Part shown: positions 8,147-11,195 of the stretch, piece by piece
How positions within the stretch are numbered: position 1 is the first letter of the stretch
Layout: the number at the start of each line of letters is the position of its first letter
From: Gemmatimonadales bacterium
Lineage (GTDB): Bacteria; Gemmatimonadota; Gemmatimonadetes; Gemmatimonadales; GWC2-71-9
Reading direction: 5' to 3'
DNA: 64,000 bases
Assembly (NCBI GenBank): GCA_036555485.1
Contig: DATBLG010000004.1
Location: forward strand, 2,090 to 66,089
Notes under the pieces: generated by a model
Database searches by the model: none
Told to the model about the DNA's origin: nothing
Seen by the model: the letters and a program-made list of their open reading frames with translations, nothing else
Translations under genes and position numbers: made by a program

Positions 8147-9661
8147 CTAGGGCCGCCCCGCACCCGCATACCAATCCCGCTCGAGCGGGAACCAGCCCAT
8201 CGCCGTGTCCGCCAGCGCCCCCGCGCGCCCGCTCTCACCGCGTGCACGCGCCAGCAAATATTCGACTCGTAGCGCCACTCGTTCCCTTGGCATGATCTGT
8301 CGTGCCGCGCGAGCGAGCGGGGCCGCCCCGGCGGTGTCGCCCTGGCCGATCAGCAAGAACGCGAAGCCGGCCTTCAGATGGGGATCGCCGCCAAACAACG
8401 AATCAGCCCGGGCGTACACCGCGCGGGCCTCCACCGGTTTCCCCATCCCCGCCAGGACCGCCGCCGCCGACTGCTGACCCCGGTACGACTCCGGGTGCTC
8501 GGCGAGCAGCGTGAGCAGGAACGACCGGTTGTCCGCCCACGCCGGCAGGCGCACCAGGCTGCGCGCCGCCAGGGCCGCGAGCAGCACGGCCGTAGAAAGG
8601 ACTACCCGCGACCGACCCCAGCGTTGCAGCGCCCAGGCGACTCCGGCGCCGACCAGCGCCGCCGGCAGCAGTGCGGGCAGGTAGAGATTCCGCTCAGCCA
8701 GCACAATGCCGGACGCGAACAACAGGTTCGCGGTCGGCAGGAACGCCAAGCCGGCGAGCAGGGCCGAGAAGCTCAGCGCGGGGGCACGGCGCCGCGCGCC
8801 CAGGCCGAGCGCCACGATTCCCAGGACCACGACTGCGCCGAGCCCGGCGGCCGCCGAGAACCCGGTTCGGAATGGAACAACCTGCGGGTGGTAGTCGACC
8901 GAGAGTGATGCGGGCCACAAGAGCAGCTCCGCTGCTCGCAGGACGGCCGGGAACGCCATCGCCAGCCGCCGTCCCACTCCCGCCCCGATGAACGGGGCGG
9001 CTACGTCGGTAAGCGGCGAATACCCGATGCGTAGCCAAACGAGGAAGAACCCGATGGTGACGGCTCCGAGCGCTGCGTAGAACTTCCCTGGGTATTTGTC
9101 CTCGCCCGCCGGTCGCAGCCAGTCATCGAGCAGTATCGCTACACCGGTAACGACACCGATCTCCTTGCTGAGCATAGCCACCAGTGCGCAGGCGATGGCC
9201 GCGATCCACCAGCGGCGCCGCGCCGCGAGGACCGCGGCCAGCATTCCCGCCGCCGCCAACAGCTCATTACGCGAGACGAGGTTCGCGACCCCTTCGACGT
9301 GGACCGGGTGAACCGCGAAGACCAACCCAGCCGCGACGGCCCCAGCGAGCGGCAGCCAGCGGGCCAACACCAATACGACGAGCACGCACACGAGCCCGTG
9401 CCAGAGGGCGTTGACGACATGCATCCAACCTGCCCGACCACCGGAGAGCGTCCAGTCGACGGCGAAACTCAGGATCGTCGCCGGGCGGTAGTAGGAGCCG
9501 GACCAATAGGGATCGTCGAACGCGCGTAGCGCCGCACCAACGTCGTGAGCGGCTGGGTTCGCCGCGATCACCGCGCGGTCATCCTGCACGAACCCGTAGC
9601 CCACCGTTGGGACGTAGAGGACGACCGCTGCGGCGAATACCATCGCGAGCATCCGCCTCAT
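8147..9661 (-). CDS. TMTC-like GT-C glycosyltransferase (DUF1736-type motifs, multi-TM) with a C-terminal TPR-like domain
   Basis: GFVQDDRAVIAANP in the first loop, the AVHPVHVEGVANLVSRNELL motif, about 10 hydrophobic helices and a soluble helical-repeat tail. I chose the ATG at 9661 (MRRMLAMVFAAAVV), 19 nt after the upstream stop. The track start at 9769 would overlap the neighbouring gene. Confidence 0.65.
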   Translation of the reverse strand: MRRMLAMVFAAAVVLYVPTVGYGFVQDDRAVIAANPAAHDVGAALRAFDDPYWSGSYYRPATILSFAVDWTLSGGRAGWMHVVNALWHGLVCVLVVLVLARWLPLAGAVAAGLVFAVHPVHVEGVANLVSRNELLAAAGMLAAVLAARRRWWIAAIACALVAMLSKEIGVVTGVAILLDDWLRPAGEDKYPGKFYAALGAVTIGFFLVWLRIGYSPLTDVAAPFIGAGVGRRLAMAFPAVLRAAELLLWPASLSVDYHPQVVPFRTGFSAAAGLGAVVVLGIVALGLGARRRAPALSFSALLAGLAFLPTANLLFASGIVLAERNLYLPALLPAALVGAGVAWALQRWGRSRVVLSTAVLLAALAARSLVRLPAWADNRSFLLTLLAEHPESYRGQQSAAAVLAGMGKPVEARAVYARADSLFGGDPHLKAGFAFLLIGQGDTAGAAPLARAARQIMPRERVALRVEYLLARARGESGRAGALADTAMGWFPLERDWYAGAGRP

Positions 9662-9680
9662 CGTGCTGCCGACCGCGCGC

Positions 9681-11195
9681 TCATGGTACCCCAGGTGCGG
9701 GGCCCACCCGGCCGGCCCGCACGAGAAACGAATCGGCGACGGCGGTGTCCCCTCGGGCGAGGGCGACACCGGCCTCGTACTGGTAGTAGAACTGGCAGCT
9801 ATCGCACAGCTGCTCCATCCGGGCGAGCAACGAGTCGGCCAGGCGCGCCTGCCCGAGCGTGAAAGCGGCGTCGGCGCCCTGGAGAAACACCGGTGGCACG
9901 CGGTCGTAGATCTCGGTCGCCACTCGAAACGCCTCGAGCGCTTCCCCCGGCCGCCGTTCGGCCAAATAGATCCCGATCATGCGCGCCGGACCACTGAAAG
10001 AGCGAGGGGAATCCTCCAATACGCTCAGGGTGACCGTGCGCGTGTTGCGCCAGATCGGGACGCGCCATGCCGTGCGGGCGCCCCCGGCCAGAACCACCGC
10101 CCCGACAATCAACGCGAAGCGCTGCGCCCGCAGGGCTTTGAGCCAGGCCCCGACGGCGATGGCGAGCCCGATGGACGGGAGATAGAGCGTCCGCTCCGCC
10201 ACCAGCACGCCGGTGGGAAACAGGAGATTGGCGACGGGCAGGAATGCGATGGCAATCCAGCCGAGGCCGAACGCCTCCACACGGCGGCCACGGCGCCATG
10301 CCAGCCACACGAGCGCCCCCCACGTGATGGCGCACAGCAGCCCGAGGGCGAACCGAGCGTCGAGCAGCGTGGTCACCAGGGTCCGTTCGGCCGGCGAGTA
10401 ATCCACCCGGAGGGTGAGGGGAAACACGAGGAGCCGGGTGATGTCCGCGAGCGCGGCGACCGCGGTCAGGCGGACGTCCAGCGGACTCGCGTCCACGAAC
10501 GCCGGGGCCAGGTGCAGCAGGCGCGTGTACGGATGCAGGATGCCCCACCGCACCAGGAGATAGGCGGCGCCCAATGCCACCCACGACGCCGCATAGGCCC
10601 ACCGGCGGTTCCGGTCGGGTCGGCCAATCCCTACGATCCAGCCCCACACGATCAGGGCGGGCACGACGGCGGCGCTCTCCTTGCTGAGCAGCCCCAGCGC
10701 GAGCGCCGCCACACTCCACCACAACCGGTCGCGGACCAGCGCCGCGTACACCGACACGAGCGCGAACAACGCGCCCATCAGATCGGCCCGCCCGACGACG
10801 TTCGCGACCGCCTCCACGTGCAGGGGATGGACCGCGAACACCAGGCCGGCCAGCAGCGCTCCCTCGGTGGAATCGGTCCAGCGTCTGACGGCCACGGCGA
10901 CCGCCACGCTGACCCCTGCATGCCAGAGGAGGTTCATCGCGTGCATCCAGGCAACGTGCCCCACTTGCCAGTCGAGCACGTACGAGGCGATCGCCAGCGG
11001 CCGATACATGGCGGCCCCAAGCTCAGGAGGCCAATAGGGCTCCCGAAATGCCTGCCACAGACCGGCCCACTCGTGCACCCGCGGATTCAGGGCGATGATC
11101 GAGATGTCGTCCAGGGCGAAGCCGTTCCACAGCGCCCCGAGGTACACGACCAGGGCGCTCGCGGCGACCGCGGCATAGATCCGTCTATTGGTCAC
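9681..11195 (-). CDS. TMTC-like GT-C glycosyltransferase with a C-terminal TPR-like domain (paralog of 8147-9661)
   Basis: GFALDDISIIALNP and AVHPLHVEAVANVVGRADLM, with the same architecture. The start is uncertain. GTG 11195 (VTNRRIYAAV...) mirrors the short tail of the paralog. ATG 11234 would overlap the upstream gene by 50 nt. Confidence 0.65.
   Translation of the reverse strand: MTNRRIYAAVAASALVVYLGALWNGFALDDISIIALNPRVHEWAGLWQAFREPYWPPELGAAMYRPLAIASYVLDWQVGHVAWMHAMNLLWHAGVSVAVAVAVRRWTDSTEGALLAGLVFAVHPLHVEAVANVVGRADLMGALFALVSVYAALVRDRLWWSVAALALGLLSKESAAVVPALIVWGWIVGIGRPDRNRRWAYAASWVALGAAYLLVRWGILHPYTRLLHLAPAFVDASPLDVRLTAVAALADITRLLVFPLTLRVDYSPAERTLVTTLLDARFALGLLCAITWGALVWLAWRRGRRVEAFGLGWIAIAFLPVANLLFPTGVLVAERTLYLPSIGLAIAVGAWLKALRAQRFALIVGAVVLAGGARTAWRVPIWRNTRTVTLSVLEDSPRSFSGPARMIGIYLAERRPGEALEAFRVATEIYDRVPPVFLQGADAAFTLGQARLADSLLARMEQLCDSCQFYYQYEAGVALARGDTAVADSFLVRAGRVGPAPGVP

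Follow-up and report, generated by a model that had tools for sequence, protein, structure and literature searches.

What do two adjacent membrane-protein genes of a type IV pilus cluster do, and does the pilin encoded beside them have a part in it? The question arises from genes A and B of a Gemmatimonadales bacterium (assembly GCA_036555485.1, contig DATBLG010000004.1), which lie in a window of 64,000 nucleotides (nt); the window is the whole stretch of DNA analysed and all coordinates refer to it. A sequence-only reading had taken the pair for bacterial enzymes resembling eukaryotic TMTC1-4, directly upstream of a pilin gene. We think it somewhat probable that A and B are inner-membrane TMTC-like GT-C enzymes which O-glycosylate the pilin in the periplasm from a polyprenyl-phosphate monosaccharide. 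This reading draws on their family membership, fold, motifs, positive-inside topology and synteny, and on transcription of pilA with a low signal over gene A, each observed or predicted here.

The gene pair, its relatives and its predicted fold

The two genes are as follows.

8147..9661, minus strand: gene A, predicted TMTC-like GT-C glycosyltransferase with a C-terminal tetratricopeptide repeat (TPR) domain, 504 amino acids (aa) from the ATG at 9661
9681..11195, minus strand: gene B, predicted TMTC-like GT-C glycosyltransferase with a C-terminal TPR domain, paralog of A, 504 aa from the GTG at 11195

The open reading frame (ORF) containing gene A extends over 8147..9769 (minus strand) and the ATG at 9661 corresponds to M37 of it. 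As homologues of gene A were approximately 501 aa, covering 90-94% of the A ORF, their alignment indicates that ATG 9661 is most likely the true start. Gene B lies in an ORF of 9681..11234 (minus strand). The alignment with its closest homologue (P0121) begins at residue 14, which is GTG 11195 and agrees with the limit that the sequence-only reading had set for the pair. The two adjacent ORFs are separated by 19 nt, and their products showed 33% identity over approximately 500 residues (E 5e-52), so that the proposed tandem minus-strand pair is one of paralogs. Both proteins carry, in one shared order, GFVQDDRAVIAANP / GFALDDISIIALNP and then AVHPVHVEGVANLVSRNELL / AVHPLHVEAVANVVGRADLM, as had been described.

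Profile searches with A and B alone gave sub-threshold matches. The Pfam DUF1736 profile (TMTC_DUF1736, PF08409) aligned with residues 266-302 of B (E 0.0088, 16.4 bits) and residues 279-299 of A (E 0.14, 12.6 bits), both below the 27-bit cut-off. Gene A additionally matched PMT_2 (E 1.9e-3) and TPR_19 (E 3e-4), again below cut-off, and an NCBIfam family annotated as 'cell surface glycopolymer formation' (E 1.4e-5, far under its cut-off). Neither A nor B had a Pfam match to PMT (PF02366) or MIR domains, the weak PMT_2 match being the most that was found. The decisive comparison needed TMTC sequences, for which nine animal N-terminal sequences from the supplementary alignment of PMC7801869 were aligned and compared with a profile of 22 bacterial membrane domains. 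The hhalign alignment of the two had a probability of 100% (E 6.8e-56) over 390 columns with 24% identity. BLASTP showed 27% identity between B and human TMTC3 (E 1e-31) and between A and human TMTC4 (E 2e-19). A control comparison of the bacterial membrane-domain profile with ArnT found no match (E 0.17). By these alignments A and B are bacterial relatives of TMTC1-4 across the whole GT-C domain, in agreement with the kinship first suggested from motifs; prokaryotic TMTC homologues had already been noted (PMC7801869).

An alignment of 67 family members revealed residues D42, D43, R78, P79, H98, P137, H139, E141, L268, P272, L275, E347, R348, W395 and P410 (B numbering) to be invariant, and K185, E186, Y279 and P333 to be nearly so. 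A and B both retain every invariant catalytic residue. Because of this invariance, the motifs of A and B are judged real conserved features of the alignment, beyond chance. Seven motifs have been defined in the TMTCs (PMC7801869): M1 DD, M2 SHKSYRP, M3 RxD, M4 KE(T/Q)xxT, M5 DW, M6 PxxP and M7 ERxxY. A and B keep M1 (DD, in loop EL1), M3 (D or E, in EL2) and M7 (ERxxY, in EL5). B has GRAD and ERTLY, and A has ERNLY together with SRNE, in which D is replaced by E as in most family members.

One assignment of the sequence-only reading had to be corrected. It had equated the HPxHxE..GRxD block with DUF1736, which is the lumenal loop between transmembrane helices TM7 and TM8 of the TMTCs (Eisenhaber et al., PMC7801869). 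The AVHPxHVE..GRxD/E block of A and B aligned instead, with identical spacing, to FAVHPIHTEAV.G.VGRA(D/E) of the TMTCs, which is TM3/EL2 with motif M3; its counterpart in human TMTC3 is residues 118-145. The DUF1736 matches of A and B fall on the L(S/R)VDY(H/S)P region, not on the AVHPxHVE block. The match spans positions 34-71 of the 75 in the profile, and DUF1736 reached E<=0.01 in 8 of the 67 family members (best 1.9e-7).

A full phmmer scan with B showed the family to be very large, with 39,613 representative clusters at E<=1e-3 and 14,882 at E<=1e-10. A look-up of clusters for curated names returned 'hypothetical protein' only. The closest relatives of A were from metagenome-assembled genomes of Gemmatimonadota, and sampled words of the locus were present in soil and rhizosphere metagenome runs. 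A tblastn search of B against 72,556 plasmids found no match. Searches of PDB sequences by phmmer gave no meaningful match to A or to B, and the membrane-domain family profile found nothing there; thus no solved close relative was found.

The AlphaFold2 model of full-length B had a pLDDT of 92.3 and a pTM of 0.92. Foldseek with this model returned TPR proteins only, and a search of the PDB with the full-length family profile was likewise dominated by TPR proteins (up to E 5e-83). The N-terminal domain was therefore modelled alone, and the membrane domain of A gave a pLDDT of 93.8. The top 25 Foldseek matches of this domain in the PDB were all GT-C enzymes or their relatives, including ArnT (5f15), Pmt4 (9i5k), human and yeast STT3, PglB, AglB, Pmt1-Pmt2, AftA, ALG9, ALG12 and PIG-U. 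Their probabilities were 0.95-1.00, but the TM-scores were modest (0.32-0.50; E approximately 1e-3). The comparison with TMTC, PMT and ArnT folds that the sequence-only reading had proposed thus led to GT-C structures only, among them ArnT, Pmt4 and STT3.

Both models contain 11 hydrophobic helices. This corrects the earlier count of about ten; the helices were counted in the AlphaFold2 models, a Kyte-Doolittle window scan having given an unreliable count. The density of lysine plus arginine in the loops was 0.226 on the proposed cytoplasmic side versus 0.079 on the periplasmic side, and this pattern was seen in 67 of 67 members. The N-terminus is accordingly predicted to be cytoplasmic and EL1 (DD), EL2, EL3 (KE), EL4 (DY), EL5 (ER) and the TPR domain periplasmic, which matches the placement first proposed for the DD loop and the TPR domain. 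The same topology has been proposed for the TMTCs (PMC7801869) and shown in part by experiment for TfpW (bioRxiv 10.1101/2020.04.19.049825). Neither of the two computational outcomes that the sequence-only reading had named as refuting it, lack of a profile match to the TMTCs and a cytoplasmic TPR domain, was thus obtained.

The TPR array is short, with seven helices forming three to four repeats. The C-terminal 100-120 residues of the B model superposed on designed TPRs (CTPR3) with TM-scores of 0.90-0.92 and a root-mean-square deviation of 1.3-1.4 A, and TPR_19 was matched by 50 of the 67 family members, so the TPR-like tail seen in the letters alone is borne out.

The pilin genes and the conservation of the arrangement

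Downstream of gene A, the minus strand encodes two copies of a pilin gene with their associated elements.

7714..8082, minus strand: pilA copy 1, type IVa major pilin, mature protein of 117 aa (N_methyl E 9e-10; N-terminal match to PilA_Myxo)
7658..7694, minus strand: GC-rich hairpin after pilA copy 1 (-43.9 kcal/mol, z -6.6)
7459..7473, minus strand: match to a sigma-54 type -24/-12 element, GGGCAC-N5-TTGC (one mismatch to TGGCAC-N5-TTGC; a consensus match only)
7034..7402, minus strand: pilA copy 2, mature protein of 117 aa, differing from copy 1 at four residues
approximately 6978-7012, minus strand: near-identical hairpin after pilA copy 2 (-39.9 kcal/mol, z -4.7)

The first pilin gene begins approximately 64 nt past the end of gene A and the second copy follows, in line with the claim that the pair lies directly upstream of a pilin. 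The tandem duplication occupies 6960-8146 (minus strand); stretches of 507 nt align with 93% identity, and the duplication begins at the -12 promoter element and includes the hairpin after the stop codon. Relative to copy 1, the mature pilin of copy 2 carries I44V, T66A, K93S and V98I. T66A and K93S each add or remove a hydroxy amino acid, i.e. a possible O-glycosylation site. Both pilins carry the usual C-terminal disulfide pair. Serine and threonine make up 30% of pilin residues 54-117, and their median was 29% across 55 pilins in the same genomic position. The Ser/Thr content and the T66A and K93S exchanges, as read from the predicted proteins, would fit O-glycosylation of the pilin.

The near-perfect sigma-54 element precedes pilA copy 2 by approximately 57 nt. 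In front of copy 1 the -12 half (TTGC) alone remains, since the -24 half is replaced by the end of gene A. Expression of the two copies may thus be under different control, and read-through from the transferase genes possibly drives copy 1. Contigs from two soil metatranscriptomes had a word depth of approximately 100-355 over the pilin genes (6919-8169), some of them identical over the variable C-terminal part, and the transferase genes (8170-16000) had a depth of 0-7, with contigs over the 3'-part of A. These depths show in situ expression of the pilin; expression of the transferase genes is low at most. High depth was also observed at 4834-5250 and 16093-16500, probably as a result of cross-mapping of conserved sigma-54 activator (AAA+) domains from other organisms.

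A scan of one genome per GTDB species was used to identify related loci; the best 80 were nearly all from Gemmatimonadota, including Longimicrobiales and Gemmatimonadaceae, and ORFs of these loci were classified by phmmer against the window proteins. A same-strand pilin ORF lay within approximately 1.2 kb downstream in 33 of the 54 loci with enough downstream sequence, and a GT2 gene within 6 kb upstream in 33 of 47. The gene order of the window was shared with JGI contigs L001-L003. Two JGI loci had the order pilB-pilT-pilC-pilS-pilR-GT2-[GT87-like]-TMTC-like-pilin-histidine kinase-response regulator-minor pilins-pilM. In another JGI locus, phmmer identified a GT2 gene followed by four genes of approximately 500 aa, the first GT87-like and the other three TMTC-like, and then a small pilin gene.

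The number of TMTC-like copies varied. Among the 41 loci with both flanks, 27 had one copy, 12 had two and two had three. This bears on whether A and B form an obligate heterodimer like Pmt1-Pmt2 and POMT1-POMT2, which would be a variant of pilin glycosylation by the pair rather than an alternative to it. The tandem paralogs with their 19-nt gap are consistent with such a dimer, as is the B-A-pilA order kept in the close relatives L003, L006, L010 and L016; PMT enzymes act as dimers (PMC7759382), and TfpW interacts with itself. The single copy in 27 of 41 loci means, however, that a heterodimer is no general requirement, and A and B each keep all invariant catalytic residues, so we give the obligate heterodimer only a slight chance. 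The variation in copy number, together with pilin duplicates that differ at Ser/Thr positions, hints at surface variation.

The gene block and the proposed pathway

On the minus strand, the gene order is pilB-pilT-pilC-pilS-pilR-555-aa membrane protein-methyltransferase-GT2-508-aa (approximately) membrane protein-B-A-pilA-pilA, and after the pilins come a second histidine kinase and sigma-54 response regulator and then minor pilins. The genes upstream of B are listed below.

21383-23095, minus strand: pilB
20236-21369, minus strand: pilT
19016-20221, minus strand: pilC
17234-18895, minus strand: pilS (Pfam 6TM_PilS, PAS, HisKA, HATPase_c)
15846-17240, minus strand: pilR (Pfam Response_reg, Sigma54_activat, HTH_8)
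14158..15825, minus strand: second putative GT-C-like membrane protein, 555 aa, with an FDDDG first-loop motif and N-terminal similarity to the 11185-12711 protein
13436..14257, minus strand: class I S-adenosylmethionine-dependent methyltransferase (Pfam Methyltransf_12/23/25/11, E 1e-12 to 1e-15)
12696..13439, minus strand: GT2 polyprenyl-phosphate sugar synthase, Dpm1/AglJ/ArnC/GtrB-like, 247 aa (Pfam Glycos_transf_2, E 3.8e-37)
11185..12711, minus strand: putative GT-C glycosyltransferase, GT87-like, approximately 508 aa (start approximate; open frame to 12945)

The pilS-pilR two-component system (15846..18895) is directly upstream of the putative glycosylation genes. From 15825 to 8147, between pilR and pilA, each gene touches or overlaps the next, an arrangement suggestive of a single transcription unit. 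Over 8001-16000, exactly this block of minus-strand membrane-protein genes, the plus strand showed an AT skew of +0.19 to +0.27, which probably reflects the T-rich codons for hydrophobic residues on the coding strand.

The GT2 protein lacks C-terminal membrane helices. Its best NCBIfam matches were AglJ, Dol-P-hexose transferase, PpgS and ArnC, all under their equivalog cut-offs, and its best PDB match was the Pyrococcus Dol-P-Man synthase 5mlz (E 6.6e-19), followed by ArnC and GtrB. These nearest relatives all load a sugar onto polyprenyl phosphate. The sequence-only reading had placed the pair next to a Dpm1-like GT2; the enzyme is indeed in the same packed block, but the membrane protein of approximately 508 aa stands between it and B.

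Homologues of this intervening protein (11185-12711) are 'hypothetical proteins' of 500-510 aa. A YDDG motif in the first loop (Y19, D20, D21, G22) is invariant in its family, and Pfam GT87 was matched by five of 27 members (best 5e-6). Its family profile had no match in the PDB. It was considered as a third TMTC-like paralog and rejected (hhalign probability 1.9%), as it belongs to a separate YDDG-type family. The N-terminal 183 aa of the 14158-15825 protein showed 33% identity to it (E 3e-15); this second protein had no Pfam or NCBIfam match and occurs in some related loci. On weaker evidence than that for A and B, both are probable additional GT-C enzymes. The two (Y/F)DDG proteins resemble an undescribed GT-C-like family which travels with TMTC-like genes in many Gemmatimonadota loci. 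The true start of the methyltransferase is probably downstream of 14257, and the gene was in the same position in several related loci.

These extra GT-C-like proteins bear on a further explanation, namely that A and B glycosylate a non-protein acceptor (lipid A or lipopolysaccharide, a surface polysaccharide or a glycolipid), as do ArnT, GtrC-type and Emb/Aft enzymes, and that the block happens to lie in a pilus cluster. ArnT was the best structural match, one of the two additional GT-C-like proteins of the block is weakly similar to GT87 lipoglycan mannosyltransferases, A has the weak match to the glycopolymer family described above, and glycans are often decorated by three-component systems (PMC11127046; PMC11194591). 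In sequence, however, A and B specifically resemble the protein-modifying TMTC family and show no similarity to ArnT, the periplasmic TPR is a protein-binding module common to the TMTCs and TfpW, and the genes examined (0.3-25 kb) included none for polysaccharide synthesis or export. We regard a non-protein acceptor as quite improbable.

For the TMTC-like pair as pilin glycosyltransferases, the following pathway can be proposed. At the cytoplasmic face, the GT2 enzyme would use a nucleotide sugar to charge undecaprenyl phosphate with one sugar, and a separate component would flip the lipid-linked sugar into the periplasm. A and B, each with 11 transmembrane helices and with the catalytic DD loop (EL1) and the HPxHxE/GRxD-E, KE, DY and ERxxY loops facing the periplasm, would then pass it to the hydroxyl groups of serine and threonine in the Thr-rich major pilin, whose gene is the next one downstream. 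The transfer would precede or accompany pilus assembly, with the acceptor bound by the TPR domain. Extension or decoration of the glycan may fall to the methyltransferase and the two YDDG-type GT-C-like proteins. In this scheme we infer the pilin as acceptor, the sugar (which might be mannose), how A and B share the work and what the accessory genes contribute.

Several points weigh against this pathway. Several TMTC motifs are kept only in part by the bacterial family: M2 is reduced to YRP without SHKS, M4 to KE (K185-E186) without T/Q..T, M5 is DY rather than DW, and M6 retains only the second proline (P333). The DNPA half of DUF1736 is absent from A and B, hence the weak Pfam score. At approximately 500 aa and with three to four TPRs, A and B have a much shorter TPR domain than the TMTCs. 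Public records name the family 'hypothetical protein' or, in some JGI records, by the automatic 'protein O-mannosyl-transferase'. The packed block 15825-8147 holds no flippase gene and has no room left for one, although it may be encoded elsewhere. Many pilins are rich in Ser/Thr, so that this feature is no proof. The depth of pilA was 50-100 times that of the transferase genes, and the contigs cannot resolve co-transcription. Of the 54 related loci, 21 were without a pilin ORF immediately downstream, and part of the family therefore functions in other settings; near the three hits from outside the phylum there was no pilin, and the pilin link therefore belongs to the clade and not to the whole family.

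These loci would also fit a different view, in which A and B O-glycosylate a broad range of proteins in the periplasm, or proteins other than the major pilin (envelope proteins, minor pilins, the secretin, alignment proteins), and owe their site in the pilus cluster to PilS-PilR co-regulation. The very large family (39,613 clusters at E<=1e-3), with its many members away from pilins, is compatible with this; the eukaryotic TMTCs (PMC7801869) and the streptococcal GT-C enzymes (PMC12041528) both act on several proteins, and the varying copy number could reflect several client classes. Within the phylum, however, the site directly 5' of the major pilin was the most conserved feature, and TfpW, the sole characterised pilA-adjacent GT-C plus TPR enzyme, is pilin-specific. 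Broad clients are therefore considered unlikely, and the major pilin is retained as the preferred acceptor.

A narrower form of pilin glycosylation makes A and B functional counterparts of the TMTCs, i.e. single-sugar O-hexosyl (possibly O-mannosyl) transferases whose periplasmic TPR reads the folded beta-sheet domain of the pilin. We put this forward tentatively and with considerable doubt. The folded globular domain as target would parallel the action of TMTCs on folded cadherin domains. That a bacterial TMTC counterpart acts on a surface-filament subunit is plausible and testable. If true, it would provide a small and abundant bacterial substrate-enzyme pair from which a first experimental structure for the TMTC family, and the rules by which its acceptors are recognised, could be obtained, and the eukaryotic enzymes would seem to descend from bacterial surface-filament glycosyltransferases. 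TMTC1-4 are disease-linked human O-mannosyltransferases for which the PDB searches with the membrane-domain profile and the fold comparison brought up no solved structure. A bacterial relative of approximately 500 aa with a confident predicted fold, a candidate substrate next door and a candidate donor synthase in the block would make it practicable to ask by experiment how a GT-C/TPR enzyme selects the protein that it modifies and which functions the HPxHxE, KE, DY and ERxxY loops have. For Gemmatimonadota, a phylum widespread in soil, the pathway also predicts glycosylation of type IV pili by a route other than the PilO/PglL oligosaccharyltransferases.

Three further features of the pilus region were observed. 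Besides pilS-pilR, a second histidine kinase and sigma-54 response regulator pair is encoded directly downstream of the pilins (4487-6963, minus strand); a histidine kinase 3' of the pilins recurs in most related loci, and the full kinase-regulator pair was detected by Pfam in L001 and L002. Downstream of the minor pilins, a 605-aa ORF (334-2151, minus strand) had no Pfam match, and L001 and L002 contain a 601-aa gene without a Pfam match among their minor pilins; by position, the 605-aa ORF could encode a PilY1-like tip or adhesin protein. A 2355-aa ORF (24689-31756, minus strand), only a few kb away from the pilus cluster, matched SprA_N (E 1.5e-10), which suggests a giant protein like the type IX secretion translocon.

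Comparison with known systems

Literature searches for TMTC together with pilin found no link between TMTC-like enzymes and pilins. The novelty of the arrangement is nevertheless weaker than the sequence-only reading implied, because TfpW has been characterised and prokaryotic TMTC homologues were already on record.

A TPR-containing glycosyltransferase, Ogt, is encoded beside pilA in Synechococcus elongatus and is required for pilin glycosylation (PMC9306852). In this protein two GT41 domains come after the N-terminal TPRs, there is no GT-C module, and hydrolysis of UDP-GlcNAc has been observed in vitro (PMC9306852). Ogt was considered as a relative of A and B and rejected; as a GT41 enzyme without a GT-C module, it is unrelated to them in fold, membrane topology and mechanism.

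The three-component systems of the GtrABC type resemble the block in combining a GT2 lipid-sugar synthase with a GT-C transferase. They differ in their acceptors, which are O-antigen or teichoic acids, and the present block has no gene for GtrA or for a MATE or ArnE/F-type flippase. In the actinobacterial Ppm1/Pmt system (GT39), a GT2 lipid-sugar synthase is likewise paired with GT-C transfer to Ser/Thr. The streptococcal GtrB/PgtC2 and Pgf systems share this logic, in that a cytoplasmic GT2 makes an undecaprenyl- or polyprenyl-phosphate monosaccharide and a GT-C enzyme transfers the sugar to Ser/Thr outside. Together, GtrB and the glycosyltransferase PgtC2 attach O-linked glucose to membrane-associated proteins in their Ser/Thr-rich regions (PMC12041528). 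Actinobacterial Pmt and the streptococcal GT-C enzymes differ from A and B in their sequence family within GT-C, lack a TPR domain and have no link to pilus genes.

TMTC1-4 (CAZy GT105) are protein O-mannosyltransferases of cadherins and protocadherins in the endoplasmic reticulum, and their 11-helix GT-C domain is homologous to that of A and B throughout (24-27% identity). The loops follow in the same order: DD in EL1, YRP, HPxHxE..GRxD/E at TM3/EL2, KE in EL3, D-aromatic in EL4 and LP.SN..F..G...AER.LY.PS at TM9-EL5. The N-terminus is cytoplasmic and the C-terminal TPR on the non-cytoplasmic side in the TMTCs, as predicted for A and B, and a polyprenyl-phosphate monosaccharide donor is expected for both. 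A and B differ in not keeping SHKS of M2, DNPA, W of DW and the first P of PxxP. Their donor lipid would be undecaprenyl phosphate, whereas that of the TMTCs is dolichyl phosphate, and where the TMTCs have cadherin clients, A and B have none and a pilin as neighbour.

TfpW of Pseudomonas aeruginosa Pa5196/PA7 is a pilin D-arabinofuranosyl transferase that uses a polyprenyl-phosphate sugar (bioRxiv 10.1101/2020.04.19.049825). It differs from A and B in its length (646 aa) and in being encoded downstream of pilA, whereas A and B are upstream, between pilR and pilA, in an arrangement with 1-4 copies. Its donor pathway consists of DPPR synthase and DprE1/DprE2, whereas the only donor-type enzyme in the present block is the Dpm1-like GT2. 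In common with A and B, TfpW is encoded beside pilA, is a GT-C enzyme with 11 predicted helices and has a DD-type motif in periplasmic loop 1, which is essential in TfpW, as well as a C-terminal TPR in the periplasm. Its targets are Ser/Thr residues of the major pilin, and the enzymes that make the sugar are encoded elsewhere or nearby. Likened by its published description, TfpW is the closest characterised analogue of A and B.

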